Below are positions 12,837 through 37,060 of a stretch of DNA of 64,000 bases, one piece after another; positions within the stretch are counted from its first letter, which is position 1, and each line of letters starts with the position of its first letter. Location of the stretch: the NCBI GenBank assembly GCA_035562735.1, contig DATMWB010000003.1, positions 44,232 to 108,231 on the forward strand. Reading direction: 5' to 3'. This stretch comes from Candidatus Methanoperedens sp. GTDB taxonomy: Bacteria; Patescibacteriota; Microgenomatia; UBA12405. Position numbers and translations under genes: made by a program. The notes beneath the pieces were generated by a model. It made no database searches and was not told the DNA's origin. It was given only the letters and a program-made list of their open reading frames with translations.

Positions 12837-12851
12837 TTATACTGAAGCTAT
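12837..12851 (+). promoter_or_regulatory. Leaderless promoter/start module TTATACTGAAGCTAT(g) (identical 15-mer at 37046-37060)
   Basis: A -10-like TATACT at 12838-43 is followed 6 nt later by ATG 12850. The 15-mer is identical to the one upstream of rfbC. Confidence 0.35.
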
Positions 12852-13092
12852 GGATATCACTCAAATTGTTGTCATTATCAGTCTTTTATCAATTTCAGTC
12901 GTCATTGTTGCCGTTGGAATTTACCTAATAAAACTTATCAAAGATCTTCGCATTACTGTAGGTCAAACCAATCAGATGATCAGTTCTGTTTCTGGACCAG
13001 TGTCTTCCATTTCTGAATTTTTAATGGGTTTTAAAAACGGCATTTCACTTTTTAATTCTTTTTTTAGTAAAGACAAAAAAGAAGAAAAATAA
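12850..13092 (+). CDS. Small membrane protein (80 aa)
   Basis: It has a single long hydrophobic helix (VVIISLLSISVVIVAVGIYLI). No homology is recognised. Confidence 0.4.
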   Translation: MDITQIVVIISLLSISVVIVAVGIYLIKLIKDLRITVGQTNQMISSVSGPVSSISEFLMGFKNGISLFNSFFSKDKKEEK

Positions 13093-13097
13093 TTTTT

Positions 13098-13529
13098 ATG
13101 TCATGTTGTAACAACAAAGAATGCAGTTGCCATCAAAATAGTAGCTTTGTATTTGGGATATTTATAGGCTTAATCATTGGTGCAGTTATTGCTATTGTTA
13201 TCTATAAAAATAATCGTGAAAAGGTCTTTGAGAATTTAAAAAAGAAACTAGAAAAAATATTTAAATCGGTTTTGGAAAGTGAAACTTTTCAAAATATTTC
13301 TACACTAAAAAGAAAAGTGGATATTAACAATTCGGCAAAAATATCCAAAAAAATAGTAAAAAAGTCTTCCTCAAAAAATAGTGCGTTGTCCAAACAAAAA
13401 AGTATGGCAAAAGAAGTACCCTCAACATCTCATAAGATTGCTGTAACTCTTCCAAAAGAATTGATTCAAAGAGAGTTTGAAGTAAAGGCACCCCCTCAAA
13501 AGATTAAACCAAGAGTTTTTAAAAAGTAG
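13098..13529 (+). CDS. Small membrane protein with N-terminal Cys cluster and Lys-rich tail
   Basis: It has CCNNKECSCH, then a TM helix, then a K/S-rich low-complexity tail. Its family is unknown. Confidence 0.4.
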   Translation: MSCCNNKECSCHQNSSFVFGIFIGLIIGAVIAIVIYKNNREKVFENLKKKLEKIFKSVLESETFQNISTLKRKVDINNSAKISKKIVKKSSSKNSALSKQKSMAKEVPSTSHKIAVTLPKELIQREFEVKAPPQKIKPRVFKK

Positions 13530-13557
13530 CCTATAACTTGACTTAAATATCGTCGAT

Positions 13558-13566
13558 TGTTATAAT
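13558..13566 (+). promoter_or_regulatory. Extended -10 TGtTATAAT heading a long structured leader
   Basis: TGTTATAAT at 13558-66 lies 30 nt after the upstream stop and about 270 nt upstream of the lipoprotein ATG. Confidence 0.3.
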
Positions 13567-13582
13567 CACCTAATGCAATTTT

Positions 13583-13623
13583 AAGCGAACCTAAGGCAAC
13601 ACGTCTTTCCGTTCGCTTTTTTT
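13583..13623 (+). terminator. Hairpin (AAGCGAAC…GTTCGCTT) plus T7 run, either a terminator for ORF 13098-13529 or an attenuator in the leader
   Basis: An 8-bp stem with a 20-nt loop is followed by TTTTTTT. Confidence 0.45.
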
Positions 13624-13633
13624 GTATCGATAT

Positions 13634-13660
13634 TTGAATACGCATTATATGCGTATTCAA
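13634..13660. repeat. Perfect palindrome TTGAATACGCA-ttata-TGCGTATTCAA
   Basis: It has 11-bp perfect arms and a 5-nt spacer. It could be an operator-like site or a hairpin. Confidence 0.7.
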
Positions 13661-13672
13661 AGTACCTTAACA

Positions 13673-13686
13673 ATCGAGAGTGAGTA
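13673..13686 (+). repeat. Left copy of the 14-bp inverted repeat ATCGAGAGTGAGTA flanking the lipoprotein cassette
   Basis: It is the exact reverse complement of 14731-14744. Confidence 0.75.
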
Positions 13687-13693
13687 AAAAATA

Positions 13694-13759
13694 TACAAGT
13701 TTAGACTTGCACCAAGGACACAAGAAATTGCTTCCTTGATGCAAGTTTTCAAACTTGTA
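13694..13759 (+). promoter_or_regulatory. Long imperfect hairpin in the 5' leader of the lipoprotein gene
   Basis: TACAAGTTTAGACTTGCACCAAGGA …loop… TCCTTGATGCAAGTTTTCAAACTTGTA forms a stem of about 25 bp with one bulge. An SD (AAGGAGG, 13824-30) lies downstream. Confidence 0.45.
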
Positions 13760-13838
13760 TAAGATAAAGTCTTATCCTCCCTGTTTCTCCACCCCTAGCC
13801 AGCCTTAAAACTGGCAACCGCTCAAGGAGGCGGTAACA

Positions 13839-14669
13839 ATGTTCCACCGTGTGTTTGTTTTTCTCACCGTATTGGCAATGCTCCTCGGAGCTGCTGGTTG
13901 TTCCCCCCAAAACCAAGCCAACGTTGAAGCTTGGAACACTTTGTTTTTTGGTTCAGAAATTGAACTTCAGAACCAACCACCCGAGTACAGCGAGACGCTT
14001 CTGGATGCCATCAATAAGTATATTGGCGAAAATTGTCCAATGAAAAAAGATTATGATATTGATGGTAATGGACAGATGTACACCATTTGTCGTGATTTTG
14101 AAGGTGAGGCAATCGAAGTTAAGTCAGCTGATTTCTTGGGTCTAGGTCTTGTTGGCTTGACTGCCGTCAGCCCAATTCCTGGAGATGAACTCCTTGCTGT
14201 CAAGTGGGCCTGGAACTCAGAAAAGACAATCAAGGTCATTATTGCGGTTGTCTTCACTGTTGAGGTTGCCCACACCATCAATGTTGTTTACAGCAAAACA
14301 AGCAACCCGCTTCACAACCCACATAACTCGCAGGTAGCTCGTGATTACATCAGTAGAATTTGGAACGATATCCAAATAAAGTTGAGTAATCCCAAAAATC
14401 CCACCGGACCTATACTGTATTGCGCTGTCGTCGTCTATCAAAACGGAGTTCAATATGTCCGTGTGTTGAGTACTGTTGATAACGTTACCGGGATCATGTC
14501 CTGGTATGGAAGTGAAGGATGGGTACACGCCTTTGACAACAAAGACGTCTATGGTTTTCTTAATGGCATGCCTCGTGGAGCCATTTCCTACGACGTCAGT
14601 CGTCCCCTGCAAGATTGCTTAAACGCACTTGGTAAAGGTGTCCCCGCCGCGAATCAATACGCACCCTAA
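13839..14669 (+). CDS. Lipoprotein of unknown function (G+C-rich relative to surroundings)
   Basis: It has a signal peptide with a lipobox (LLGAAG|C), a strong SD 8 nt upstream and a visibly higher G+C than neighbouring genes. No family is recognised. Confidence 0.6.
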   Translation: MFHRVFVFLTVLAMLLGAAGCSPQNQANVEAWNTLFFGSEIELQNQPPEYSETLLDAINKYIGENCPMKKDYDIDGNGQMYTICRDFEGEAIEVKSADFLGLGLVGLTAVSPIPGDELLAVKWAWNSEKTIKVIIAVVFTVEVAHTINVVYSKTSNPLHNPHNSQVARDYISRIWNDIQIKLSNPKNPTGPILYCAVVVYQNGVQYVRVLSTVDNVTGIMSWYGSEGWVHAFDNKDVYGFLNGMPRGAISYDVSRPLQDCLNALGKGVPAANQYAP

Positions 14670-14678
14670 AAACCCTAT

Positions 14679-14720
14679 GGTTGGTACTGGCTAACCCCAG
14701 TACCAACCCCCTTCGGGGGA
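14679..14720. terminator. Tandem hairpins between convergent genes (12-bp perfect stem, then a CCCC-cUUCGg-GGGG tetraloop hairpin)
   Basis: The first hairpin is GGTTGGTACTGG-ctaacc-CCAGTACCAACC. The second is CCCCCTTCGGGGG. Confidence 0.5.
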
Positions 14721-14730
14721 CCACAAGCAC

Positions 14731-14744
14731 TACTCACTCTCGAT
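14731..14744 (-). repeat. Right copy of the 14-bp inverted repeat (TACTCACTCTCGAT)
   Basis: It is the reverse complement of 13673-13686, and the pair bracket 1,072 bp. Confidence 0.75.
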
Positions 14745-14749
14745 TTACA

Positions 14750-15367
14750 TTATTCCTCAACTTTTCCAAACACTTCTCTTAGTGATTCATTTACTGTCTT
14801 ATTTTGAACTTGTTCAATTAGTTGTTGTTGATAAGCTACAATTTCCCCATCGGTAATTCCACCCTTTTCCATTATTGTTTTTGCGTGTACTTCGTCTAAA
14901 ATTGATTCTCCGACCTCATCACCAATTCTACCAAGCAAGTTAATCACTATTGGTTTGATTAAAGCTTTTTGTTCCACTGTCAATTCCTCACTTGTCAATC
15001 CCTCAACAATCCACTCCGTAGTTTTATTTTGTAACTCAGCTGGAGGTTCAAAACATTTTCCCTGAGTACTCCAAACCAAAAAGGCGTCGCTAAAAGATTC
15101 TGCCAACACCATTCCCATTCCACTTCTCAATGCGACCCCGTATAAGTCTGTTTGTTCTGAAACATAATTCTCAACCGAAGCTATAACATCTAAATTATTA
15201 TCAATTCTAGCCACGCCATAGACAAATGCTAGTGATTCTACCCCCAATTTATCAATATTTCCCTTATTCATTTCCGTCACCGCTCTCACATCTTCAATTG
15301 AAGACCTTGCTCCGAGTGGTGTCACTTGCATTCCATCAAATATTGAGCGTGATTGTTCTGCAGCCAT
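14750..15367 (-). CDS. Hypothetical acidic protein (205 aa)
   Basis: A clean ORF divergent from alaS. No recognisable domain. Confidence 0.45.
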   Translation of the reverse strand: MAAEQSRSIFDGMQVTPLGARSSIEDVRAVTEMNKGNIDKLGVESLAFVYGVARIDNNLDVIASVENYVSEQTDLYGVALRSGMGMVLAESFSDAFLVWSTQGKCFEPPAELQNKTTEWIVEGLTSEELTVEQKALIKPIVINLLGRIGDEVGESILDEVHAKTIMEKGGITDGEIVAYQQQLIEQVQNKTVNESLREVFGKVEE

Positions 15368-15388
15368 AGCTTATTGTACCGCATTTCT

Positions 15389-15397
15389 TGCTATAAT
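15389..15397 (+). promoter_or_regulatory. Extended -10 TGcTATAAT 6 nt upstream of the alaS ATG (leaderless geometry)
   Basis: TGCTATAAT at 15389-97 with the ATG at 15404 and no SD. Confidence 0.4.
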
Positions 15398-15403
15398 CTC
15401 CCT

Positions 15404-17278
15404 ATGAACGCACGGGATTTGAAAAACAAATTTGTTGATTTTTTCAAAAACTATCAACATGCCGAAATTCCCAGTGCTTCAATTGTTCCCGAAAACGATC
15501 CCACCACTCTTTTCATTTCTGCTGGCATGCACCCCCTCGTTCCTTATCTCTTAGGTCAACCCCATCCTCTAGGCAAAAGGTTAGTTGATGTTCAAAAATG
15601 TATTCGTACTGGCGATATCGATGAAGTCGGTGATACCTATCATCACACTTTTTTTGAAATGCTTGGCAACTGGTCTCTTGGTGACTATTTCAAAAAAGAG
15701 ATGATTGCTTTTTCCTATGAGTTTTTAACCAACAAAAAATATCTAGGTCTTGATGTATCAAAATTAGCTTTCAGCTGTTTTGCTGGTGATCAAGACGCTC
15801 CTCGTGACGAAGAAAGTTTCAATTTTTGGCGTGAACAGGGAGTTAGTCCCAGCAGAATTGCCTATTTACCTAAAAAAAATAATTGGTGGGGTCCCGCTGG
15901 AGCTACTGGCCCCTGTGGTCCAGATACCGAAATGTTTTATTGGACAGGGGAGAGTGAAGCACCCGAAAAATTTGATGCCAATGATAGTCGTTGGTTGGAA
16001 ATTTGGAATGACGTTTTTATGCAGTACAACAAAAAAGCCAATGGTACCTTTGAAGCACTAAAAGCTCCAAACGTTGATACAGGTATGGGGGTTGAGCGAA
16101 CTACTGCAGTTTTATCGGGCTTATCGGATAATTATCAAACCTACATTTGGCAACCAATAATTCAAAAAATAGAGGAAATCTCTGGGAAAAAATATGTCGC
16201 TGCAATGAATAATCCCGTCATTGCGAGTAGCACATCCGTCATTGCGAGCGAAGCGAAGCAATCTTCTAAAAAAATCGCCACCTTATCTTCTACTTCTAAC
16301 GATGACGCCCGAAGTTTTCGCATTATCGCTGACCATATAAAGGCTGCAGTTTTTATGATTGCCGACAGTGTTGAACCCTCAAACAAAGAGCGTGGTTATG
16401 TTCTCCGTCGTCTTATTAGACGTAGTATCCGTCAAGGTAAAATTTTGGGAATAGAGCAAAATTTTTGCTCTATTATTGCCACTACTGTTTTAGACAATCA
16501 AAACAATTATGCTGGTACCTATTCCGAACTAGATTCAAACAAAAATAAAATTTTAGAGACTTTAGAGGCTGAAGAAACCAAATTTCGTCGCACTCTCAAC
16601 AAGGGTCTTAGTGAAATTACAAAATTAATTATCCGTCAAAAAAGTGTCTCCGGAAAAGAAGCTTTTGACTTATACCAATCCTTTGGTTTCCCCGTCGAAA
16701 TGATAGAGGAAGAATTAAGAAGAAACAATTTATCTTTAGATATTGCCGAGTTTAACCGTCTAAAAGAGGAACATCAAAAACTATCTCAAACTCTTTCTGC
16801 CGGAAAATTCAAGTCAGGTTTAGCTGATAATTCCGAAATTATCACCAAATATCACACTACTACCCATCTAATGCACGCCGCTCTTAGAAAAGTTTTGGGT
16901 GAGCATGTTGAACAAAGTGGTTCCAATATTACCTCAGAAAGACTTCGTTTTGATTTTTCCCATCCGCAAAAAGTTGCCGAAGATCAGCTAAAAGAAGTCG
17001 AAAAAATAGTCAATGAACAAATTAATGCCTCACTTTCCGTCACTGTGGAATCTATGAAATTTACTGATGCCCAAAAATCTGGTGCCTTAGCCTTTTTTGG
17101 CGCTAAATACCCAGAAATTGTTACTGTCTATACAGTCGGTGACCCAAAAAGTTTTTTTTCAAAGGAAGTCTGTACCGGCCCCCATGTCGATAATGTTGGG
17201 AAATTAGGTCATTTTGAAATTCAAAAAGAAGAATCCGCAGGCAGTGGCAAGCGTCGGATTTATGCTATTCTTAAGTAA
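15404..17278 (+). CDS. alaS: Alanyl-tRNA synthetase, short form lacking the C-Ala domain
   Basis: Met at 15404 aligns to the AlaRS N-terminus (…FVDFFKNYQHAEIPSASIVPENDPTTLF…). The catalytic and editing domains are present (HxxxH …CTGPHV). The ORF ends right after the editing domain. Confidence 0.88.
   Translation: MNARDLKNKFVDFFKNYQHAEIPSASIVPENDPTTLFISAGMHPLVPYLLGQPHPLGKRLVDVQKCIRTGDIDEVGDTYHHTFFEMLGNWSLGDYFKKEMIAFSYEFLTNKKYLGLDVSKLAFSCFAGDQDAPRDEESFNFWREQGVSPSRIAYLPKKNNWWGPAGATGPCGPDTEMFYWTGESEAPEKFDANDSRWLEIWNDVFMQYNKKANGTFEALKAPNVDTGMGVERTTAVLSGLSDNYQTYIWQPIIQKIEEISGKKYVAAMNNPVIASSTSVIASEAKQSSKKIATLSSTSNDDARSFRIIADHIKAAVFMIADSVEPSNKERGYVLRRLIRRSIRQGKILGIEQNFCSIIATTVLDNQNNYAGTYSELDSNKNKILETLEAEETKFRRTLNKGLSEITKLIIRQKSVSGKEAFDLYQSFGFPVEMIEEELRRNNLSLDIAEFNRLKEEHQKLSQTLSAGKFKSGLADNSEIITKYHTTTHLMHAALRKVLGEHVEQSGSNITSERLRFDFSHPQKVAEDQLKEVEKIVNEQINASLSVTVESMKFTDAQKSGALAFFGAKYPEIVTVYTVGDPKSFFSKEVCTGPHVDNVGKLGHFEIQKEESAGSGKRRIYAILK
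16216..16264 (+). repeat. Interspersed repeat copy A (partial unit plus full unit) inside the alaS coding sequence, in frame
   Basis: CGTCATTGCGAGtagcacatc + CGTCATTGCGAGCGAAGCGAAGCAATCT. It translates as VIASSTSVIASEAKQS within a loop insertion relative to canonical AlaRS. Confidence 0.7.
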
Positions 17279-19467
17279 TGGAGCTGTCCTATTATTGGCT
17301 TATTTCAATCACTACCGAAGTTGTTTCAGTGGGTCTGATAAAACGAGGTAATCCAAATACTTTGGCTGCGCTTGGTCCAGAAACCGAATGGCTTCCCGAC
17401 AATCCTGATTCATTTTTACACTCTGTTGATATTTCTTTATCAGAGGCGGCGCAAAAAGCTTCACTTGAGCCCGAACAAGAACCAGAAACAAGTGCTTTTA
17501 TCCTTCCACCAAAGTGGATCGGCAATGACGGTAAAATTTTTCCAGAATATTTAAAATTACTCGAAAACCTTTGTCGTTCTCTAAAATTAAAACCCCTTGG
17601 TTTTATCAGTAACGATGAAGCCTTCATCGAATCTCTTGGAAAAGAGGATTCATTCCCCCCAAGTTTTATTTTGGTATACCTTGGTATAAAAGAATTCTCC
17701 TTGTCCTTGGTATATCTTGGAGAAGTAAAAAAACGTTTTCATCAAGCCTTAAGTAATGATTTTACCCCTCAAGATTTAGAAAATGCTCTAGTTACTGTTC
17801 GTTTGGATTCAGCCTTACCCCCGAGAATTTTAGTCTTTGGTCATTTGGGATTAAGCATTATTGATGATTTAAAAAATTATTCTTGGATAGGTAAAAAAAA
17901 TGTTGAAACCTTTTTACATTTACCTGATGTTGAAGCCTATCAACCAGAGGAACTTTTTTCTTTGTATTGTAAAACCGTCTCCTCTCAAATTGAAAATAAA
18001 GCTCAAAATGCGTCACCCCCCCCAGTAGAAAAAGTTGATATCTCCGATAATAATCTCGAAGAGATAGCCGAGGAACCCATAGAAGAAATTGAAGAAACAG
18101 AAGAAGCTCCTAAAGACGAAAAAATATTTATCGAGGAAGATATAGAAAATTCCATAGATGAAGTTCCTGCGATGGATTTGGGTTTTTCCCAAATTACTGA
18201 CTCTGACTCTATTGTTTTGACTCCACCAACTTCTATTGATACAGACTCTTTTGCCAAGGAAAATATCGAGACTCAGTTACCCCCCTCAAAGTCCAACATA
18301 AATCTCCCTAAATTTTCCTTTCCCAAGATTTCTTTGCCAAGTTTAAAATTCAATCCTTGGTTCCTCTTTCCCTTGGCTCTTTCACCCCTACTTCTGCTCA
18401 TTCCCTACTATCTAATGAAAGCGGAAATTACGATAAATTTTACTCCAGTTGAGATAAACAAAGACTTCAATGTCACTCTTGATTCAACGGCTACTGATGT
18501 TACGACAAGTACCATTCCTGTTCTTAAAAAAACTCTTGATTTAAAGTTTTCAGAGTCTATTGCTACGACTGGTCAAAAAGAGACTGGTGACAAATCAAAA
18601 GGGGAAATTACCCTTTTTAACAAGGCTGACAAAATTCAAAATGCTCCCAAAGGCACAATACTATCTGACAACTCTGGTAAAAAATACGAACTACTCACTT
18701 CCATTCAAGTGCCCGCAAGTACCTTTGACCTCGCTGTTGGTAGTATTGCCATGGGAAAAATCAATGCCACCATAATTGCTAGTGATATTGGACCTGAGTT
18801 TGATTTAAATAAAGACACTCTTTTGTCCTTCAAAGATAACGCCAACTTACTGGCTAAAGTCAATGAAACAATTACCGGTGGAAGTCGACGTCAAATTAGA
18901 GTCGTCTCTTCCGAAGATAAAAGCAAATTAAATAAGGTCGTTACCGATTCTTTACCTACCCGCATTTCAGAAAAGGTTGACGCAGAATCTTCACTTGCTG
19001 GTCTTATGACTGGCACTCTCTTTGTCGACAAAAAACAACTCGATTTTAATCGTGAGATAGGTGAAGAGGCAGATACTCTTCAAGTAAATGCCAACTTGGT
19101 TCTTTCTTTGCTTCAAGTTGACCCCCAACAAAAAGAAAATATCCTAAAAACATTACTAGTAAATAATCAAGATGTTTTAAAATCTATTTCCTCACCCGCT
19201 GATTTTTCTTTTACTTTTAACGCCACCCAAAACACCTCATTAAAATCAACCGGAAAGTTGACCATAACAGGTAAGACACTTCCCAAAATTGATACTGAAA
19301 GCCTCCGTTCACGCTTAGTTGGGAAAAGTATCACTGACGCCTTGAGCATTGTAGATTCACAGTCCCGAGTTTATGATAGGGACATAAAGATAATTCCTTC
19401 CCCTTTCAAATTTCTCAAGCGTTTACCCCCATCTCGAGATAAAATTACCATTATCCAAAAATTTTAA
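17278..19467 (+). CDS. Membrane protein with a PilM/FtsA-like (actin-fold) cytoplasmic N-domain, an acidic linker, one TM helix and a beta-rich extracytoplasmic domain
   Basis: The N-terminal ~160 aa resemble the PilM/FtsA SHS2 region. An E/D-rich linker, a TM helix (WFLFPLALSPLLLLIPYYLM) and a ~350-aa C-terminal domain follow. The fold assignment is by eye only. Confidence 0.5.
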   Translation: MELSYYWLISITTEVVSVGLIKRGNPNTLAALGPETEWLPDNPDSFLHSVDISLSEAAQKASLEPEQEPETSAFILPPKWIGNDGKIFPEYLKLLENLCRSLKLKPLGFISNDEAFIESLGKEDSFPPSFILVYLGIKEFSLSLVYLGEVKKRFHQALSNDFTPQDLENALVTVRLDSALPPRILVFGHLGLSIIDDLKNYSWIGKKNVETFLHLPDVEAYQPEELFSLYCKTVSSQIENKAQNASPPPVEKVDISDNNLEEIAEEPIEEIEETEEAPKDEKIFIEEDIENSIDEVPAMDLGFSQITDSDSIVLTPPTSIDTDSFAKENIETQLPPSKSNINLPKFSFPKISLPSLKFNPWFLFPLALSPLLLLIPYYLMKAEITINFTPVEINKDFNVTLDSTATDVTTSTIPVLKKTLDLKFSESIATTGQKETGDKSKGEITLFNKADKIQNAPKGTILSDNSGKKYELLTSIQVPASTFDLAVGSIAMGKINATIIASDIGPEFDLNKDTLLSFKDNANLLAKVNETITGGSRRQIRVVSSEDKSKLNKVVTDSLPTRISEKVDAESSLAGLMTGTLFVDKKQLDFNREIGEEADTLQVNANLVLSLLQVDPQQKENILKTLLVNNQDVLKSISSPADFSFTFNATQNTSLKSTGKLTITGKTLPKIDTESLRSRLVGKSITDALSIVDSQSRVYDRDIKIIPSPFKFLKRLPPSRDKITIIQKF

Positions 19468-19469
19468 TC

Positions 19470-20201
19470 ATGAGTTATCTCTATGTTAAATCACCACCCA
19501 AGATTACTGCGCCCAAAAAAGTCATGTCGCCGCTGCGTCGAAAGATATTGGCCTCATTTTTTCTTGTTTCCGGCCTTTTGTTGTTTTTTTCAGTGGTCTT
19601 TCCCATAGTCCAATTTCAGCTTGAATATTCCACAAAGTTTAATCAAATTCTCAATCCACTTTCAAACCAATTCTACAACCAAAATGGTTCAGTTTTAGGT
19701 GATTTGAATACTGATTACACCGAATTATCGAATTGGTTTGTTAATGATTCAGAGGTGGTCTCATCTTCTTCACCAAGCTCCCTTATTACTACTTATTATG
19801 TATCCATTCCCAAATTGAAAATTGAGCAAGCGGCAGTCATTTTTGGTAGTACCGATTTGAAAAAATCACTTATCCAATATCCGAGAACCGCGCTTCCAGG
19901 TCAATTTGGATCTCCCGTTATCTTTGGCCATTCTGTGCTCCCTCAATTTTTCAACCCTAAGTCCTATATCACCATTTTTTCAACCTTACACAAATTGAAT
20001 CAAGGAGACGAAATATTTATTGATTATGATCATATCCGTTATAAATACGTCGTTGAAGAAATGTATGAAGTTCAACCTACCGACTTGTCGGTCTTAGAAC
20101 AGCGTTTTGATGGTCGATATCTAACCTTAGTTACCTGTTCTCCTCCTGGTACATATTTGCGCCGCTTAGTAATTAAAGCCCAAATTACCGACAATACATG
20201 A
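19470..20201 (+). CDS. Sortase family transpeptidase
   Basis: It has an N-terminal TM anchor, a catalytic His region (GHSVLP) and the TLVTC active-site motif. Confidence 0.7.
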   Translation: MSYLYVKSPPKITAPKKVMSPLRRKILASFFLVSGLLLFFSVVFPIVQFQLEYSTKFNQILNPLSNQFYNQNGSVLGDLNTDYTELSNWFVNDSEVVSSSSPSSLITTYYVSIPKLKIEQAAVIFGSTDLKKSLIQYPRTALPGQFGSPVIFGHSVLPQFFNPKSYITIFSTLHKLNQGDEIFIDYDHIRYKYVVEEMYEVQPTDLSVLEQRFDGRYLTLVTCSPPGTYLRRLVIKAQITDNT

Positions 20202-20572
20202 ACTATCTAGCTATTGATTATGGAACCAAAAGAATTGGTCTTGCCTATTCCCTAAACGGAATTATTTTTACTCTGCCCATTGTTCAAAATGACGACAAAA
20301 TTGTCGATATTCTAAAAAAAATTATTACTGAATATCAAATTGAAAAAATATTCATCGGTCTTTGTGAAGGGCCGATTGCAACAAAGACAAAAAAATTTAT
20401 TGATATGCTCACCCCCATGATAAAATTACCTATCGAAACAGTTGAAGAAGCGGTTAGTACAATCGAGGCTGAAAGTATTTTTTTAAAGAGTAAAAAAAAT
20501 ACCAAAAGTTACAAAAAACAAATCGATTCTGTAGCTGCTGCTGTAATTCTGAATCGAGTTATTGGTTTCTAA
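20198..20572 (+). CDS. ruvX: Putative pre-16S rRNA nuclease / Holliday junction resolvase YqgF
   Basis: It has the MNYLAIDYGTKRIGLA N-terminus typical of the YqgF/RuvX RNase H fold. Confidence 0.8.
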   Translation: MNYLAIDYGTKRIGLAYSLNGIIFTLPIVQNDDKIVDILKKIITEYQIEKIFIGLCEGPIATKTKKFIDMLTPMIKLPIETVEEAVSTIEAESIFLKSKKNTKSYKKQIDSVAAAVILNRVIGF

Positions 20573-20577
20573 AAACT

Positions 20578-20775
20578 ATGTTTAAAAATCTTATTTCCCC
20601 AATTCAAGCTTGGTTGTTGTCACAGGGTCGTTGTGTAGGATGTGGTGAAGAACTGTCTAAAGGACAAAGAAAAGTAATTCGAGGTCAAACAACTGTTACT
20701 TGTCGTTGTGGTAGGATATTTATCCATAACCATCAAAGTGACACCTATCGTCGAGCTCTTTTTAATGAAATTTAA
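20578..20775 (+). CDS. Small zinc-ribbon protein
   Basis: It has a CxxC…CxC cysteine arrangement (CVGCG…CRCGR). Confidence 0.35.
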   Translation: MFKNLISPIQAWLLSQGRCVGCGEELSKGQRKVIRGQTTVTCRCGRIFIHNHQSDTYRRALFNEI

Positions 20776-22261: not shown

Positions 22262-22266
22262 AAAAA

Positions 22267-22307
22267 CGTCATTGCGAGGAGCATTTGCTGAAGCGATGTG
22301 GCAATCT
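22267..22307 (+). repeat. Interspersed repeat copy B (divergent) between convergent gene ends
   Basis: CGTCATTGCGAGgagcatttgctgaagcgatgtgGCAATCT. Confidence 0.55.
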
Positions 22308-22328
22308 CAAAGGGATTGATTTTGTTTT

Positions 22329-23417: not shown

Positions 23418-23474
23418 TTGCGTTGTAAATATATCATAGTTGCGTCACCTTAGAAAAAATGAGAATATTATTTC

Positions 23475-24566: not shown

Positions 24567-24569
24567 AAC

Positions 24570-25988: not shown

Positions 25989-25997
25989 TCAACCCCC

Positions 25998-26026: not shown

Positions 26027-26084
26027 TCCCACATTCGGCGAGCGGTTGGAACATAACTCGTCATTTAAACTTTAATAGTTAAAT

Positions 26085-29000: not shown

Positions 29001-29345
29001 ATGGGTGGTCAACGACTTGGAGAAATGGAAGTTTGGGCTCTAGAAGCACATCAAGCTGCTCACATTTTGCAGGAAATGTTAACCATTAAATCAGATGATA
29101 TCGAAGGTCGTACTCATGCCTTCCAAGCCATTATTAAGGGTCAACCTATTCCTGAGCCTGCCATTCCTGAATCATTCAAGGTTTTAACCAAAGAATTAGC
29201 TGGATTGGCACTCGATATTTCTCCTGTTGGTATGAAGCCAATAATTGAAGAAACCGCAGAAGAAATTGAGACAGAGCTTGAAACTGAAACTCAAGTCGAA
29301 ACTATTCCTGAAACAAATGTTGAAGATTTAAAGGAGGAAAACTAA
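26085..29345 (+). CDS. rpoB: DNA-directed RNA polymerase subunit beta
   Basis: 1086 aa with conserved RpoB blocks throughout (…GPNIGL…, …NMQRQAVPL…-like, …GGQRFGEMEVWALEA…). Confidence 0.95.
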   Translation: MSMPSAKRTSWGKKYPQIPVLDLLAVQKESWAKFLKTDLEETVRSISPISDYTGNNWLLELGELFFDKITVTPETAKLKGLNYTVPVYTKAKLTNKRTGLVREEDVFLLNLPTMTPEATFIVNGIERGVINQLVRSPGVYFTGEVDPATGKTLCNAEIRPVRGSWLEFFIGKKEVIFARIDRKKKVPATIVLRAACGLQDKQLVGEFGDYINATISADPTKSQEEAYLEFYRKLRPGEPVVLENAEKFFNDRFFDLRTYELGQVGRYKINKKFGFNFSDSDKENWVIKKEDLIATIRQLIKLQKGESKHFDDIDSLANRRLRRAGEIVAQVALRPAMARFERMVKERMSLISTKEKPTPSQMINPQPLISSLNTFFRSNQLSAILDQTNPLAELDLLRRVTVVGVGGLTRERAAFSIRDVHSSQYGRICTVRSPEGPNIGLVSYLALYAEVDKYGFIEAPFRKVIKNGKNYTFSDEVVYMDAEDEYDHRITHLGVKIEGNVIQQNWVPIRYQGEFAEGPIDQVEFIDMIPSEIVGASASLIPFIDHDDATRALMGSHMQTQAVPLIQPEVPIVGTGMESTVASAMNRCVLAKESGVVSYADAGRVIIGDITYEVTKFERTSPYGTCYNQRVLVNVGDKVKKGEVIIDGPSTAEGELSIGRNLLVAYASIDGLGYEDSFLISDRLVKQDVLTNIQIFEYKADVVETKLGTEELTKDIPNVSEAELAKLTDDGIVMIGATVGPNDILVGKVEPRGEKELSAEERLLRAIFGEKAREVKDTSLRVPNGEGGVVIKIEVLGKDEGDELDPGVNKVVKVYVAQIRRIQEGDKIAGRHGNKGVICRIMPEYDMPRLGDGTPVDLVMSPLSVIARMNLGQILEVTLASAGYHLNKKYAVPVFEKYSEDQIGKELAEAGLNPTGKAKLYDGRTGDAYDQEVVVGVGYILKLVHMVDDKVHARSTGPYSLVTQQPLGGKARMGGQRLGEMEVWALEAHQAAHILQEMLTIKSDDIEGRTHAFQAIIKGQPIPEPAIPESFKVLTKELAGLALDISPVGMKPIIEETAEEIETELETETQVETIPETNVEDLKEEN

Positions 29346-32300
29346 TGTTTAAATTTAAAAATATGCTCGATTTCACTGGTATCGAGATAAAACTTGCCTC
29401 TCCAGAGGAAATTTTATCCTGGTCTACTGGTGAAGTTCTAAAACCTGAAACTATTAACTATCGCTCTTGGCGTCCAGAAAAAGACGGTCTTTTTTGTGAA
29501 AAAATCTTTGGACCCTCTCGCGACTATGAATGTTACTGTGGCAAATACAAAAAAATCCGATTCAAAGGTGTTATTTGTGATAAATGTGGTGTTGAAGTAA
29601 CTACTAGCAAAGTTCGACGTGAACGAATGGGTCATATTGCCCTTGCCGCTCCTATTGCTCATTTATGGTATCTTCGAAACACCCCATCACCATTAGGTGT
29701 TATTCTCGATGTTCCTCAAAAAGAATTAGAAGCCGTTGTTTATTTCACTAAATATTTAGTGACCGCTGTTGATAACGACAAAAGAAAAGAAGCTTTAAAC
29801 AATTTAGCTATCAATTCTGAAAATCGTCAAAAACAAATCGATGTCGATTCCGCTGCTGCAATTGAAAGATACAAGACTCAAACAGCCAAGGAAAAGAAAG
29901 AACTTGACAACAAAATCAAGAACAAAGATCAGCTCCTAATTGCCAAAGAAGAACGTGATGTTCGTCTAAAACAAGACATTCAAAAAATTGAAAACAAAGC
30001 AACTTCCGAAAAAAATCGCATCGAATCCTTGATCAAATTCTTGGAAGATAAAATCAAAAGCATGGAAGTCCTCTCTGTCTTAACCGACGAAGAAGAATTT
30101 TATCTTGCCCAATTTAAGGCCGATATTTTCTACAAGGCAAAAATGGGTGCCGAAGCTTTATTAGAAGTACTAAAAAATATTGATCTTCCAGAGACTGTAA
30201 AAAATCTAAAAAAAGAATTAGCCAAAACTTCTTCAAAACTCAAGAAAAAGAAAATCATGTACAAGATTAGAATCCTAAATGGCATGATTGAAAATTCTAT
30301 TAATCCTTCATGGATGATAATGCAATATGTCCCAGTTATTCCACCAGATCTCCGTCCTATGGTCCAACTCACTGGAGGCCGATTTGCAACTTCAGATTTA
30401 AATGACCTTTATCGACGTCTTATCAACCGCAACAACCGTCTTAAAAAATTAATCAAACTAGGTGCTCCAGAAATTATTCTCCGAAATGAGAAGAGAATGC
30501 TTCAGGAATCCGTTGATATTCTTATTGATGCTCAAAAAAGCTCTAAGAATAAACGAAAAAGTAGCAAACGTTTACCTCGATCACTTTCTGACCTTCTTCG
30601 TGGTAAAAAAGGACGTTTCCGACGTAATCTTCTTGGAAAACGTGTTGATTATTCAGGTCGCTCCGTTATTGTAGTCGGTCCAGAATTAAAACTAAATCAA
30701 GTCGGTCTTCCAAAAGAGATTGCTCTTGAAATGTATCGACCTTTCGTTTTGAAAGAATTGATGGATAGCGGTCTAGCTGCTAACATCAAATCCGCCAAAA
30801 ACTTGATTGACCACCGTGTCAACGAGGTTTATGACATTTTGGAAAGAGTTACAAAAAATACTTATGTTCTCTTAAACCGTGCTCCAACCCTCCACAAGCT
30901 TTCAATTCAGGCATTCAAACCAGTTTTGACCGATGGTTTGGCTATTAGGCTTCATCCTTGTGTCTGTAAAGGTTTCAATGCTGACTTTGATGGAGATCAA
31001 ATGGGTGTCCATTTGCCTCTTTCCGCCGCAGCTCAAAAGGAAGCCAAACATCTCATGCTTCCTTCAAGAAATCTTCTCAAACCTTCAGATGGTGCTCCAG
31101 TTTCAATTCCATCCCAAGAAATGGCCGTCGGTTGTTACTACATCACTTCCGTAAATTCTGCTGATATTTCCAAAGAAAATCAAGAAGGATTTAAGGACTT
31201 ATCCATTATGGGTGATACTGAGGAATTAACATTAGCCTATCAAACAGGCAAAGTTGGTCTTCGTGAATTGGTCGTTGTCAGAATGGATGGTAAGCTCGTT
31301 AAAACCACCTATGGTCGAGTTTGGTTCAATTCCATACTTCCAAAAGAATTTGAATATATTAATGCACCTATGGCTGGCTCAAAAGCCCTAAACGACCTTA
31401 TCGTCAAGTCTATTGAAATTGCTGGACGTCTAAAAACAGTCCGCTTAATCGATTCTCTAAAAGATATAGGTTTTGCCGGATTTACTCTATCTGGACTTTC
31501 ATTAGCCATGCCTGACATGGGTTATCTATCTGAGAAAGAAGGGATAATTGCCGCCGCCGACAAACGCGTTGTGGAAATTGAAGACAACTATAAAATGGGA
31601 CTTATTAGTAATGAAGAGAAAAAGCGTCTAAGTCAATCTGTATGGATGGAAATTACCGAATCCATCGCTGAAAAAACTTGGGACACTCTTGATATTGATT
31701 CTCCTATCCGAGTAGTTTCTGCAGCTGGTATTAAGCGTGCCTCAAAAGATCAAATCAAACAGCTCTCCGGTATGCGTGGACTTATGGTTGATCCAACAGG
31801 TAAAATCGTTCAACTTCCCACCAAAAGCAATTTCCGTGAAGGTTTATCAGTCTTTGAATACATTACTGGTGCCCGAGGTACTCGTAAAGGTTTGGCTGAC
31901 ACAGCTTTACGTACTGCTGACGCTGGTTATTTGACCCGACGTTTAGTGGATACATCCCACGTAGCTATTACCCGAGAGGATGACTGTGGTACAACTCGTT
32001 TTTGGACCATTGATAGAAACGAAAAAGGTCGTGAGAAATATTTCGGACGTCGACTTTTAGGTCGTGTCTTAGCCAATGACGTTATTGATCCTGCTACAAA
32101 AAAGATTGTTGCCAAAAAAGGCGATCTTATAGATAACAACCTTCAAGCAATTATCGAAGCTACTGAGGTCAAAACAGTTGATATTCGATCCGCACTAACC
32201 TGTAAATCAAAAGTAGGTCTTTGTCGTAAATGTTATGGATGGGATCTCTCTACCCGTCAGATGGTTGGTTTTGGAGTTCCAGTTGGAGTTGTTGCCGCTC

Positions 32301-33085
32301 AATCAGTCGGAGAACCAGGTACCCAGCTTACTCTTCGAACTAAACACACTGGTGGTGTCCTTGGTGTCGACGTTACCCAAGGTTTGCCTCGTATCCAAGA
32401 ACTCTTTGAAGTCAGAATGCCAAAGCTACCTTCTCCATTAGCTGAGATTGACGGTAAGATCAAAGTAAAAGAAAATGTCGATGGTTACGAATTAAAATTA
32501 ACTGGAAAAGATAAAAATGGTGCTGCCAAGACAATAAATTATCTTCTTCCAAGCAATGTTACTCTCTTAGTTGGAGATGGTGACCTTGTGGGTCAGGGAA
32601 CTCAACTATGTTCTGGTCCTATCGATGTTCGTGAAATTCTTGAAGTTTCAGGTTTAGAAGCAGCTCAACGCTATCTCATCAACTCAATTCAAGGAGTCTA
32701 CGAATCCCAAGGTATTGCTATTCACGACAAACACATTGAAGTAATTGTTCGTGAAATGAGTGACAAGCTAAAAATTGAGGATCCAGGTGATACCAATTTC
32801 CTTTATGGTCAAATCGTTACTAGACCAGTCTACGAAGAAGCCAATAATAAAGTAAAGGAAAACAACAAAGATGGTAAAGCCTCAAAAGGACACAAAGTAC
32901 TTTTGGGTCTTATCCAATCATCTCTTACTACTGGATCATGGCTTTCTGCAGCCTCTTTCCAACAAACCACTGGAGTTTTAACCGAAGCTTCCTTACTTGC
33001 CGAGGTTGATAGCTTGATAGGTTTGAAAGAAAATGTTATTATCGGACGTCTGATTCCTGTAGGAAAGGGTCAGGAAATTAAATAA
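29345..33085 (+). CDS. rpoC: DNA-directed RNA polymerase subunit beta'
   Basis: 1246 aa with the zinc-binding CxxC…Cxx[10 protein letters not shown] and trigger loop. Confidence 0.95.
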
Positions 33086-33087
33086 TT

Positions 33088-33510
33088 ATGCCAACTTTTA
33101 ATCAACTAATCAGTAAATGTCGAAAGGTCCGACGTCTTAAATTAAGAACCGGTGCACTTCGAGACAATTTTAATAGTATAAAAAGTACTAGTATTGACAG
33201 TTACAATCCCCAAAAGAAAGGGGTAGTAACAGTGGTCAAGACGATGACTCCAAAAAAACCTCATTCTGCTTTACGAAAAGTAGCTAGGGTAAGATTAAGC
33301 AATCGAGCCACTGTCACCGCTTACATTCCTGGTATCGGACATAATTTAGCCGAACATGGTATCGTCTCTATCCGTGGTGGACGTGTTCGAGATCTTCCTG
33401 GTGTTCGTTATCATATTATTCGCGGTAAATATGACGCTGGTGCTGTTGTCGGTCGTCAACAATCCCGCAGCAAATACGGTGCAAAACGTTCTGCTCCGGC
33501 TAAAAGCTAA
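33088..33510 (+). CDS. rpsL: 30S ribosomal protein S12
   Basis: It has the PTxNQL and KKPNSALRK motifs. Confidence 0.95.
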
Positions 33511-33527
33511 TCCATTTAAAAAAATAT

Positions 33528-34010
33528 ATGTCAAGAAAAGGTCAAATAAAAATTAGAGAAGTCCTACCCGACACTGAATACAAGAGTGTTGTAGTTACCA
33601 AGCTTATCAATCGTGTTATGTATGCCGGCAACAAAAATGCTGCTCAAAAACAGGTTTATGAAGCATTGCAACTTTTTAAAAAAGAAAGTAAAAGTGAAGA
33701 TATTATTACTACTCTCGAACAAGCACTTGATAATTTGAAACCAAAAGTTGAGGTTCGTCCTCGTCGTATTGGTGGCGCTGTTTATCAAGTTCCCACACCT
33801 GTGCGAGGTAGTCGTCAATATTCCCTTGCCATTCGCTGGTTGGTAACTTCAGCTAGAAAAAGACCCAACAAACAATATCATTCCTTTGCCCTAAAGTTAG
33901 CTGCCGAACTCTTAGCCACCCTAAACAATGAGGGCTCTTCTATTGCTAAGCGTCAAGAAATTGAGAGAATGGCCGAAGCCAATCGCGCCTTTGCTCATTT
34001 GCGTTGGTAA
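33528..34010 (+). CDS. rpsG: 30S ribosomal protein S7
   Basis: 160 aa, typical S7. Confidence 0.95.
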   Translation: MSRKGQIKIREVLPDTEYKSVVVTKLINRVMYAGNKNAAQKQVYEALQLFKKESKSEDIITTLEQALDNLKPKVEVRPRRIGGAVYQVPTPVRGSRQYSLAIRWLVTSARKRPNKQYHSFALKLAAELLATLNNEGSSIAKRQEIERMAEANRAFAHLRW

Positions 34011-34027
34011 AAAGCTAATTGCAATAA

Positions 34028-34063
34028 TTCGTCATTGCGAGGAGGTACTCCGACGAAGCAATC
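34028..34063 (+). repeat. Interspersed repeat copy C (between the rpsG stop and a terminator)
   Basis: TCGTCATTGCGAGgaggtactccgacGAAGCAATCT. Confidence 0.7.
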
Positions 34064-34074
34064 TATTTTAAAAT

Positions 34075-34102
34075 AAAAAAGTCCCCTGTATAGGGGACTT
34101 TT
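34075..34102. terminator. Rho-independent terminator after rpsG (bidirectional-type hairpin)
   Basis: AAAAAGTCCCCT-gtat-AGGGGACTTTTT, a 12-bp stem with flanking A and T runs. Confidence 0.75.
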
Positions 34103-34136
34103 TAGTTATTTGTTCTATCATGTATCTGATATATAT

Positions 34137-34145
34137 TGATATAAT
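34137..34145 (+). promoter_or_regulatory. Extended -10 TGaTATAAT 5 nt upstream of ATG 34151 (leaderless geometry)
   Basis: Its spacing to the ATG is identical to that of the 7737 element, with no SD. Confidence 0.4.
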
Positions 34146-34150
34146 AAGTA

Positions 34151-34570
34151 ATGTCGAGGTATGAATTGTTTCAACACTTAGTTGGAGAAGAAATAAGAAA
34201 AAGTAATCCCCATGGCAAATTACAGGTTGTTGGCGATACCTCTACTTTAGAAGACGACGAAAGACTTTTCCATATCGCTGGGGAACTCATTTCAAATTGT
34301 GCCGAAAAGGGAGCTGAAGAGATAACTTTAACTCTAACACCACGGCTAATAGTCGTAGAAGACAATTTAGTTCACACCCCAGAAGAAGTGGAAAAAATTC
34401 TTGAAAATATTCAGCAACCACTACCAGTAACCAATAAAGCTATCGTTGAAAACGGTCAATCAATTCGTGGTTTTGGTATTTTTAGTGTTCGAAACACTCT
34501 CCTTGAAATTGGTGCTTCCTTGTTTTATGAACATCGTGATGGTCGAATAATCGCTAGAGTTGAATTATAA
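34151..34570 (+). CDS. Small GHKL (histidine-kinase-like) ATPase domain protein, anti-sigma-factor/SpoIIAB-like size
   Basis: 139 aa with an N-box-like ELISNCAEKG and a G-box-like GFGIFSVRNTLLEIGASL. There is no sensor or DHp domain. Confidence 0.5.
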   Translation: MSRYELFQHLVGEEIRKSNPHGKLQVVGDTSTLEDDERLFHIAGELISNCAEKGAEEITLTLTPRLIVVEDNLVHTPEEVEKILENIQQPLPVTNKAIVENGQSIRGFGIFSVRNTLLEIGASLFYEHRDGRIIARVEL

Positions 34571-34615
34571 GAAAGAAATCTGGTTAGACTATTTTGTTTT
34601 GTGTTAACATAATTT

Positions 34616-36004
34616 ATGTCATTATTTTCAAAATCAAAAGTTGTTCTCTGGCCAAAAGATGAAAGCCTAGAAATATATTTAGACCGAAGTGACAACAACA
34701 CCTTTTCTTTTGAAACAAATCTTTGGAGTGAACAAGGTGATGATAGTTTAAATAGTTTAGCCAGCTTTTTTAAACAAAATAAAATATCCGAGGCATATGT
34801 TCTCCTAAATGACACTTATGTTATTACCAAGACTTTTATTTACGATTCTGTTGTCACTAAGCTCGATCCAAATGAAGTCATAACCTTGGCCAAAGATTCA
34901 ATAGATTTCAAAATATCACCCGAGTCTGTTACCTTTGATCTTGAGTCTGAAGGAAATCGGACTTTAGTTCGAACAAGAATTTTCAATCAGGATAAATTTC
35001 AAATACTTACTGCCAATCTCCAAAAAATTGGTCTAAAAGTACTTGATTTTGAAACCGTATCTTCATCTGTGGCCAAGCTTTACACCAATTTTGATAACGG
35101 TCAGTATTTTTTCTTTTACCCCATAAATACCCACGATTACGTTGCTATCCTAAGCAACAAAGGAAATGTTTACTTAACCTCAATTATCAAAAAATCTCTT
35201 CCGGAACTTAAGAAGTTATTAAATTACGCTCAAGCCTATTTTAGCAACAAGGAGCCAACCCAATATTTGCCAGATACCAATTACAACGAATCCGAAATTT
35301 GTCAACGTTTTCAAAAAGCGTCAAATCTACCTCTACCAGTTCTATCTTTCTTTATTGGCCAATCGAAGCCTGTTGCTGATATAATAAAGACAGAAACAAC
35401 CCAGACGCTTCCCCCAACGCCTACTTCTAATATTATCGATTCAACAAATAATCCCTTACCAACTATGGAAAACAACAAAAAAAGTCTTTTACCAATAATT
35501 GCTGTTTTTATCATCACCGCAATTGTTGCCTCAATTATTGTTTGGTTTATATTAAACCAAAACAAAGATACTGATTTAAATCCAGGTGGTGAAAACCCGG
35601 CAGAAGAAATAAGTAGTACCCCAATGGCAACCGAAGAACCAACTCCTACTATTGCTGAGCTTAGTAAAACCCTAAAAATACAGGTGCTAAATGCCACCGA
35701 CATAAATGGTCAAGCAGCCACTATCAAAACTGAATTGACCAACCTCGGTTTCACTAGTATCAATACAGGTAACAGCAAAGAAGCAGCAACCAGCAACCAA
35801 ATTCAAATAAAAAAGACCATTGTTCCGGACTATTTTCTTAAAAACGTGGCTCAATTTTCGACAGCAACAGTCAGTGAGTTATCTGAAACTTCAACCTATG
35901 ATGTTGTCTTTATTATTGGGGTAGATCTCAAAACTGGAAGTGCCGCTCCTACAGCGACAACTCCCACTACAACTAGTACCCCATCAGCTACTCCCACTAA
36001 TTAG
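34616..36004 (+). CDS. Membrane protein with a PilM-like cytoplasmic N-domain, one TM helix and a C-terminal LytR_C domain
   Basis: The N-terminal ~290 aa resemble PilM (…FQILTANLQKIGLKVLDFETVSSSVAKLY). A TM helix (LLPIIAVFIITAIVASIIVWFIL) and a LytR_C-like C-terminus (LKIQVLNATDINGQAATIKTELTNLGF…VVFIIGVDL) follow. Confidence 0.5.
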   Translation: MSLFSKSKVVLWPKDESLEIYLDRSDNNTFSFETNLWSEQGDDSLNSLASFFKQNKISEAYVLLNDTYVITKTFIYDSVVTKLDPNEVITLAKDSIDFKISPESVTFDLESEGNRTLVRTRIFNQDKFQILTANLQKIGLKVLDFETVSSSVAKLYTNFDNGQYFFFYPINTHDYVAILSNKGNVYLTSIIKKSLPELKKLLNYAQAYFSNKEPTQYLPDTNYNESEICQRFQKASNLPLPVLSFFIGQSKPVADIIKTETTQTLPPTPTSNIIDSTNNPLPTMENNKKSLLPIIAVFIITAIVASIIVWFILNQNKDTDLNPGGENPAEEISSTPMATEEPTPTIAELSKTLKIQVLNATDINGQAATIKTELTNLGFTSINTGNSKEAATSNQIQIKKTIVPDYFLKNVAQFSTATVSELSETSTYDVVFIIGVDLKTGSAAPTATTPTTTSTPSATPTN

Positions 36005-36021
36005 TAATTAAAAAAATCACT

Positions 36022-37041
36022 ATGAAAATCCTTGTTACAGGAGGTTGCGGTTTTATTGGTAGTAATTTTATCCATTATTGGTTGTCGCGACATCCCGATG
36101 ACACCATTGTAAATTTAGATAAATTGACCTATGCTGCCAATCCAGAATCACTACGTGATTTAGAAAAAAATCCTCATTATCAATTTATCAAAGCTGACAT
36201 TTGTGATGAGGTTGCGGTCGACAAAGTTATGTCCGAAGGTATCGAGCTCATAATTCATTTTGCCGCCGAATCACATGTTGATCGTTCTATCGATGATCCA
36301 CTTCTTTTTGTAAAGACCAACGTTTTAGGAACTTACACCCTTTTAAATTCCGCAAAAAAACACGGCAACATCCGTTTTCACCATGTTTCCACTGACGAAG
36401 TTTTTGGAGCTCTCCCCTTAGATACTGAGGAAAAATTCACTGAAGATACTCACTATGATCCCCGAAGTCCATACTCAGCTTCAAAAGCATCTTCAGATCA
36501 CTTTGTTAGATCTTTCTATCATACATTTAATTTGCCAGTGACTATCAGTAATTGTTCAAATAACTATGGTGCCTTTCAATCTCCAGAAAAATTTGTGCCA
36601 AGAATGATTACTAATCTTATGGATGGTAAAAAAATTCCTGTCTATGGAGATGGTCTCTATGTCCGAGATTGGCTTTATGTTGACGACCATTGTTCTGCCA
36701 TCGAAGCTATTGTCTTAAATGGAAAAATAGGTCAGTCATACAATATTGGCGGTCTTGTCAAAGACTATTCCAACCTAGAAGTTGCCAAGACAATTCTTCA
36801 AATTATGGGTAAAACCGATGCTGAACTTGAATTTGTAGCCGATAGACCTGGTCATGATCGTCGCTATGCTGTCTCTTGGGAAAAAATTCATAATGAATTG
36901 AATTGGTCTCCCAGTCTTACCTTTGAAGAGGGGATAACAAAAACAATCAACTGGTATCAGCAAAACGAAACATGGTGGCGCGAAGCTAAGACCGAAGCTG
37001 AAGCTTTCTATGTCCGACTCAACGCTTCAAAAAACAAATAA
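36022..37041 (+). CDS. rfbB: dTDP-glucose 4,6-dehydratase
   Basis: MKILVTGGCGFIGSNF, YxxxK and an extended SDR fold. Confidence 0.88.
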   Translation: MKILVTGGCGFIGSNFIHYWLSRHPDDTIVNLDKLTYAANPESLRDLEKNPHYQFIKADICDEVAVDKVMSEGIELIIHFAAESHVDRSIDDPLLFVKTNVLGTYTLLNSAKKHGNIRFHHVSTDEVFGALPLDTEEKFTEDTHYDPRSPYSASKASSDHFVRSFYHTFNLPVTISNCSNNYGAFQSPEKFVPRMITNLMDGKKIPVYGDGLYVRDWLYVDDHCSAIEAIVLNGKIGQSYNIGGLVKDYSNLEVAKTILQIMGKTDAELEFVADRPGHDRRYAVSWEKIHNELNWSPSLTFEEGITKTINWYQQNETWWREAKTEAEAFYVRLNASKNK

Positions 37042-37045
37042 TTTG

Positions 37046-37060
37046 TTATACTGAAGCTAT
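37046..37060 (+). promoter_or_regulatory. Leaderless promoter/start module TTATACTGAAGCTAT (second identical copy)
   Basis: TGtTATACT at 37044-52 is followed 8 nt later by the rfbC ATG at 37061. The 15-mer is identical to 12837-12851. Confidence 0.35.

Follow-up and report, generated by a model that had tools for sequence, protein, structure and literature searches.

The stretch of DNA analysed here (the window) comprises 64,000 nucleotides (nt) of contig DATMWB010000003.1 (assembly GCA_035562735.1, positions 44,232 to 108,231 of the forward strand) and holds 73 genes. One of these, the gene encoding FtsK (10095-12230), has its best relatives (68-79% identity) in metagenome-assembled genomes of Candidatus Shapirobacteria, a lineage of the Candidate Phyla Radiation (CPR/Patescibacteria). 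The element under study is a 15-mer, TTATACTGAAGCTAT, of which the window has two exact copies, one at 12837-12851 and one at 37046-37060, both on the + strand, in one case at the start of a gene for a small membrane protein and in the other before rfbC. An initial annotation of this DNA interpreted the 15-mer as a portable promoter-start cassette or a sign of co-regulation, with a TATACT -10 box 6-8 nt before each start. Exact matching confirmed both the identity of the two copies and the presence of the boxes, and no third copy was detected in the window even when two mismatches were allowed.

The first copy lies between a gene encoding a RodZ-like membrane protein with an HTH_25 domain (12239-12835; no obvious repressor) and the gene for an 80-aa single-pass membrane protein (12850-13092, + strand). 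The stop codon of the upstream gene (TAG, 12833-12835) is followed by the T that opens the 15-mer, the box TATACT (12838-12843, + strand) and the spacer GAAGCT (12844-12849), which occupies the place of a discriminator region and whose last base, directly 5' of ATG 12850, is a pyrimidine; the last two bases of this copy (AT) are thus already those of the start codon. The initial annotation took the open reading frame (ORF) at 12850 for a small membrane protein, and it is indeed a real and conserved gene, as evidenced by 79 homologous protein clusters and by the gene order FtsK, HTH_25 (RodZ-like) protein, small protein and YtxH-like protein, which is maintained across Shapirobacteria. The sole Pfam lead is a weak resemblance to DUF948 (E=0.005, under the Pfam cut-off), and the YtxH-like assignment of the protein encoded next (region 12850-13529) is under the cut-off as well (E=3.6e-4). 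A pairing of DUF948-like and YtxH-like proteins is also seen in Firmicutes.

The second copy precedes rfbC (37061-37621, + strand), the second gene of rfbB-rfbC-rfbD, which encodes dTDP-4-dehydrorhamnose 3,5-epimerase (Pfam PF00908, E=1.3e-77) and lies in a region with the order rpoB-rpoC-S12-S7-LytR_C-rfbB-rfbC-rfbD shared by relatives. Here the rfbB stop codon (TAA, 37039-37041) is followed by an extended -10 box, TGT-TATACT (37044-37052, + strand, the hexamer itself at 37047-37052), by the spacer GAAGCTAT (37053-37060) and by two consecutive start codons (ATGATG, 37061-37066), with the box 8 nt before the first ATG (37061) and 11 nt before the second (37064). This copy of the 15-mer stops directly 5' of ATG 37061. 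The N-terminus M(M)KFTPL is conserved from these ATGs in RfbC orthologs, and position 2 of the Pfam profile is matched from residue 7. A further TATACT occurs at 37647-37652, within the 118 nt that separate rfbC from rfbD, and the ATG located 5 nt after it opens an ORF of 4 codons only; this box may serve rfbD as a promoter that leaves a leader, or it may belong to a mini-ORF.

The claim that an exact 15-mer is unlikely by chance did not survive comparison with randomized sequences. Shuffled windows that preserve dinucleotide composition contain 8.0 ± 4.3 direct exact 15-mer pairs, and the real window has about 10 isolated pairs of 15-17-mers in addition to three genuine longer repeat families; since shuffling alone yields about eight such pairs, the idea of the 15-mer as a rare repeat was rejected. 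What calls for an explanation is that both copies lie directly before a start codon, because the repeat as such is not unusual. Nor do the copies have the same position relative to the two starts, as had been stated: the box-to-ATG distance is 6 nt at the small gene and 8 nt at rfbC, which puts their registers 2 nt apart. The flanks are unrelated and the likeness ends at the edges of the 15-mer on both sides. No Rfam family was detected at either site or in the window as a whole. Among about 2 Mb of loci from relatives, the 12-mer TATACTGAAGCT (at most one mismatch) was start-adjacent elsewhere only at the orthologous rfbC of locus L167, the remaining matches being intragenic and unconnected with starts.

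What has been conserved in orthologs of the small gene is the box, together with its spacing from the ATG, and not the bases in between. In 12 Shapirobacteria loci from GTDB the orthologs begin with MD(I/T/S/P)TQ, in line with the MDITQ read from ATG 12850, and TATACT (once TAAACT) stands 5-8 nt before the ATG in 11 of the 12, with spacers as varied as gaacta(t), taattaat, agttct, gaaccc, aaaaac, catttt, gaattc and aaatt. All six closer relatives retrieved by protein search (6/6) have the box at the same distance of 6 nt, while the spacer varies. Contigs of the same region and the same species (from SRR7550491 and SRR7550492; 96% protein identity) have aaaatagtTTATACTgaagctATG before the ATG and are the only ones to keep gaagct; at 89% protein identity (L174 and L175) the sequence is aaaatagtTTATACTctttttATG, with spacer cttttt, and at 86% (L176 and L177) it is aaaatagtTTATACTctctttATG, with spacer ctcttt.

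A similar pattern was observed for rfbC, compared in seven orthologous loci of 75-91% identity gathered from protein-search matches and contig look-ups. Relatives retrieved by a metagenome scan were dropped, the best of them being 54-69% identical and mostly from unrelated lineages, with upstream regions that are not comparable. The extended box TGTTATACT is kept in L165, L166 and L167 (84-91% RfbC identity), 6-7 nt before ATGATG; the sequence preceding the ATG is tgtTATACTgagctatATGATG in L165 (spacer gagctat), tgtTATACTagttcatATGATG in L166 (spacer agttcat) and tgtTATACTgaagctATGATG in L167, the last being the same 16-mer as at the small gene of the window, in the 6-nt register and with spacer gaagct. 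L170 and L171 have TACAAT and TATCAT, respectively, 8 nt before the ATG, and L168 and L169 have no clear box. A box is thus located 6-8 nt before the first rfbC ATG in five of the seven loci, and the spacer drifts. The two genes can also be compared within one other organism, since the RfbC match P0005 and the small-protein match P0129 carry the same name, Candidatus Shapirobacteria GW2011_GWE1_38, and were taken as one sister species. In that species the two genes have only TTATACT in common, their spacers being agttcat (rfbC) and ctcttt (small gene). A module that co-regulates the two genes, as suggested initially, is difficult to reconcile with spacers that differ in the nearest relatives at both genes and with a sister species in which the shared part shrinks to TTATACT.

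The arrangement is not restricted to these two genes. In the window, 4 of 20 TATACT hexamers precede the start of a long ORF by 6-8 nt (those at 2751 and 10095, the small gene and rfbC), and the same count in 393 kb of Shapirobacteria loci gave 37 of 127. Measured to an ORF-opening ATG, TATACT occurs 4, 17, 7 and 3 times at distances of 5, 6, 7 and 8 nt and at most twice at any other distance between 0 and 24 nt; TATAAT occurs 12, 14 and 7 times at 5, 6 and 7 nt, and two control hexamers, TCATAT and ATTATC, showed no distance peak in the 393 kb. The aligned sites have the form TAnnnT, with T1, A2 and T6 invariant and with TATAAT and TATACT as the preferred hexamers; of 43 sites, 21 have a G located 2 nt 5' of the hexamer and 39 have a pyrimidine directly preceding the ATG, and TGn is present in 34 of 93. 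These features correspond to an extended -10 motif together with the pyrimidine(-1)/purine(+1) bias of positions at which transcription begins. The sequence, position and conservation of the boxes and their enrichment across the lineage are observations, whereas transcription from these starts and leaderless translation are predictions. About 10 of the 73 genes of the window (roughly one in seven) carry such a box 5-8 nt before the start. A motif resembling a Shine-Dalgarno (SD) sequence is present in only about 10 of the 73 (for instance rpoC at 29345 and the gene at 62688-63311), most of the others having plain A/T-rich upstream sequence, and the organism seems to rely little on SD pairing.

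Based on this evidence, the two 15-mers are best interpreted as two independent start-adjacent -10 promoters of the sigma-70 type, the identity of their spacers being most likely a coincidence; a probability of about 0.8 can be given to this interpretation. Its promoter part agrees with what the initial annotation had proposed for the boxes, in that box and spacing (5-8 nt) are kept at both genes in orthologous loci of about 20 related genomes and that the same design recurs at 2751, 10095, 15404 and other starts. RNA polymerase with the housekeeping sigma factor would start the transcript of the small gene at A12850 and that of rfbC at A37059 or A37061, leaving a leader of 2 nt or none; the rfbC prediction is based on the usual 6-8 nt between -10 box and start and on the pyrimidine/purine rule. 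No special sigma factor is needed, because the motif TGn-TATAMT fits the housekeeping sigma-70. The resulting mRNAs would be leaderless and translated without an SD sequence: gaagct and gaagctat contain none of GGAG, GAGG or AGGA, and 6-8 nt leave no room for SD pairing. Both sites combine four sequence features expected of leaderless genes, namely the box distance, the lack of an SD sequence, a conserved start codon and conservation of box and spacing. Since the gaps to the upstream gene are only 14 and 19 nt, this gene is on the same strand in both cases and no terminator-like site was detected between it and either box, the two boxes would act as operon-internal promoters, each adding a downstream transcript of its own to read-through. 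Selection would hold TTATACT and its distance to the ATG, and GAAGCT would drift freely except for the pyrimidine at its last position.

Several points weigh against this interpretation. The start sites are predicted from sequence, and genes placed 14-19 nt behind a co-oriented gene could be expressed wholly by read-through. The -35 regions are poor, with a weak ATGAAA at a 16-nt gap before the small gene (consensus scan) and none recognisable before rfbC; extended -10 promoters work without a good -35 element. The rfbC box, at 8 nt from the ATG, lies at the edge of the distance distribution, and a 2-nt leader is there as probable as none. The remaining points concern the coincidence. Among 5491 pairs of non-orthologous promoters, the number of pairs with an identical run of 0, 1, 2, 3, 4 and 5 bases after a shared hexamer decreased as 816, 201, 65, 13, 8 and 7, and runs of at least 8 bases were found only in the pair from the window and its L167 ortholog, against about 0.04 pairs expected. 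In addition, a third promoter of the window, that of a 205-aa gene on the minus strand (ATG 15367), likewise reads AAGCT-ATG after its box.

How surprising the shared spacer is can be estimated in another manner. From the position frequencies of the collected 6-nt spacers, two promoters have an identical spacer with P = 1.5e-3; by estimate, adding the same hexamer, the preceding T and the AT lowers this to about 1e-4 for each pair of promoters. With approximately 55 promoter pairs in the window this amounts to roughly 0.5-1%, and to about one such pair per genome of about 1 Mb, which makes the identity only mildly to moderately improbable once the shared design is taken into account. A general preference of promoters for AAG at -5 to -3 was considered and rejected, as the lineage set prefers AA followed by any base (29/112) and not AAG. 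Coincidence is the most likely origin of the spacer identity in the window species, and a function for the spacer is not supported. Were many copies of TATACTGAAGCTAT to occur at gene starts genome-wide, this would count against the coincidence and leave the promoters as they are.

The alternative that takes the spacer most seriously holds that the 13-15-mer is a functional, species-specific element, GAAGCT(AT) being an operator or a preferred discriminator/initial sequence that co-regulates envelope-related genes (those for the DUF948-like membrane protein and for rhamnose synthesis); (G)AAGCT(AT) would then represent a species-specific sequence preference or a binding site at no fewer than three promoters (12850, 15367 on the minus strand, and 37061). 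The excess of the one observed pair over the empirical decay speaks for it, as do the TACAAT box at 15373-15378 (minus strand), which is also followed by AAGCT-ATG, the location of both AAGCTATG octamers of the window at such starts, and the rfbC spacers of L167, which retains GAAGCT, and of L165, which nearly does. However, the spacers of the nearest other species differ (cttttt and ctcttt at the small gene, aggtc at the 205-aa gene in an 89% relative), in the sister species the two genes do not have the same spacer, and the two sites are 2 nt out of register. Inspection of the sequence revealed no dyad symmetry, GAAGCT is a common hexamer in the window (53 copies vs 26 expected), and the third AAGCT case is by estimate still an event of about 5% once the first pair is given. 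Such an element is therefore considered unlikely, though its existence would mean that a CPR bacterium with very few regulators tunes leaderless promoters through the bases between box and start.

A second alternative, slightly more doubtful, questions whether the boxes are promoters. They could be an A/T-rich signal for translation initiation or coupling, or simply conserved intercistronic sequence, with the genes expressed by read-through only. The very short gaps, the co-oriented upstream genes and the lack of terminators agree with this possibility, and so do the many genes with A/T-rich upstream regions devoid of an SD motif and the poor -35 elements. On the other hand, TAnnnT, TGn and the pyrimidine/purine rule are traits of recognition by RNA polymerase and not of ribosome binding. 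The same box moreover occurs before the first genes of transcription units and in the divergent pair at 15373-15397, places that read-through cannot account for. A role in translation is also made less likely by the lack of complementarity between TATACT and the canonical anti-SD sequence, which may not be that of the host.

That the 15-mer was copied between the sites is highly improbable, be it as a portable cassette or through short-patch gene conversion with the rfbC promoter as donor and that of the small gene as recipient. In favour of copying, GAAGCT is older at rfbC, where it is shared with L167 and L165, and at the small gene it occurs in the window species only, five of its six positions differing from the sister sequence cttttt between identical flanks. 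However, these flanks are constrained (coding sequence and box), the six spacer bases are the sole free positions and expected to be saturated at this divergence, the box of the small gene is far older than the window species, no likeness extends beyond the 15 bases, and repeats or mobile-element features are lacking. Gene conversion was accordingly rejected as unnecessary, and the seven plus two bases of flanking identity fall well short of the length that homologous recombination usually requires. The cassette fares no better, with only two copies, unrelated flanks, registers 2 nt apart and no recurrence of the 12-mer at unrelated starts in about 2 Mb of loci.

The interpretation of the boxes as independent start-adjacent promoters places them next to a known design, described in Deinococcus and Actinobacteria. 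In Deinococcus, TAnnnT located about 6-7 bp before the ORF is the -10 region of genes with leaderless mRNA (PMC12340547, PMC4007540), the transcripts starting at or a few nt from the start codon without a conserved -35 element (PMC4007540, PMC12340547), and "TA-led" genes have been reported across bacteria (PMC3160421). As a leader of less than 6 nt is taken as the criterion of leaderless genes (PMC4007540), both the 2-nt and the 0-nt leader predicted for rfbC would fall within the definition. The genes described here resemble the leaderless genes of Deinococcus deserti, D. radiodurans and Mycobacterium tuberculosis (PMC4007540, PMC12340547, PMC3898074, PMC3160421) in the position of TAnnnT about 6-7 bp before the start, in the lack of an SD sequence, in the weak or absent -35 element, in the conservation of the box in orthologs and in that they make up a minority of genes which is sizeable and shows no clear bias in function. 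They differ in the host, which belongs here to the CPR/Patescibacteria (Shapirobacteria), in the kind of evidence, which is sequence here and mapped transcripts there, in the preferred hexamers (TATAAT and TATACT vs TACACT in D. radiodurans; PMC12340547) and in that many of the boxes are located in gaps of 14-25 nt inside apparent operons. With extended -10 sigma-70 promoters they share TGn, present at rfbC (TGTTATACT) and in about one third of the collected sites, whereas the small gene has AGT and not TGn directly 5' of the hexamer. Short interspersed repeats and regulon operators are alike in presenting an identical short sequence 5' of two unrelated genes, but here there are two copies of 15 bp with unrelated flanks and no symmetry, in which the part outside the box is not conserved.

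In the literature searched, no description of leaderless genes in CPR bacteria was found; the design is already known, and its probable occurrence in a CPR bacterium is the new part. The 15-mer itself matters little, and its by-product is comparative evidence on gene expression in Shapirobacteria, uncultured CPR bacteria with small genomes. Start-adjacent boxes may aid the annotation of start codons and provide a testable view of how transcription and translation begin in organisms that cannot yet be grown alone.

The annotation of alaS is an example of this use. A TGc-TATAAT box (hexamer at 15392-15397, + strand) stands 6 nt (ctccct) before ATG 15404, and both the N-terminus MNARDLKN and TATAAT plus 6 nt are kept in L172, L174 and L176, suggesting that alaS most likely starts at ATG 15404 and not at TTG 15353, the start of the longest ORF. 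This box is back to back with the divergent TACAAT of the 205-aa gene (15373-15378, minus strand, 5 nt before ATG 15367), whose spacer AAGCT resembles the 15-mer, both being included in the region 15365-15406.

Other boxes of the window are located in front of diverse genes. At 2739-2744 (+ strand), TATACT precedes by 6 nt the GTG (2751) of an AAA+ ATPase with a Lon lid domain, and in all seven orthologous loci displayed in the comparison it lies 5-9 nt before the ATG. The FtsK gene has TATACT at 10083-10088 (+ strand), 6 nt before ATG 10095. Of the 11 orthologous loci displayed, 9 retain this box at 5-6 nt from the ATG; the exceptions are L006, with TAATACT, and L007, with TATACT 13 nt upstream. 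It is also kept in L176 and L177 and not in L174 and L175. TATAAT at 34140-34145 (+ strand) is found 5 nt before ATG 34151 of a 139-aa HATPase_c protein, and TAAAAT at 61681-61686 (+ strand), 6 nt before ATG 61693, is a weaker case, seen in the window sequence alone. Directly 5' of the FtsK box, at 10040-10082, there are short tandem direct repeats (tctagttt-like units); relatives have repeats at the same place with a different sequence, namely aatact units in L013 and ttagaaat units in L015.

The window contains other repeats as well. An exact 21-mer, TTTTTTACTATTTATCTATTA, is found at 5759-5779 and 42296-42316, upstream of the genes for RNase J (ATG 5799) and EF-G (ATG 42342), and before the former the 10-mer ACTATTTATC is repeated three times with a period of 16 nt. 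The region of the 21-mer is not conserved, relatives having other short tandem repeats there (before fusA, ttcgtaatt twice and aatacgtaatactt twice). A repeat family of the form GTCATTGCGAG...(C)GAAGCAATCT, of about 27-37 nt and without a match in Rfam, is represented by eight copies on the + strand (16217, 16238, 22268, 34031, 41206, 44498, 61559 and 61595), several of which lie directly downstream of stop codons (22261, 34010, 44453 and 61551). Two members of this family (34028-34064 and 61592-61628) share the same sequence along all 37 nt.

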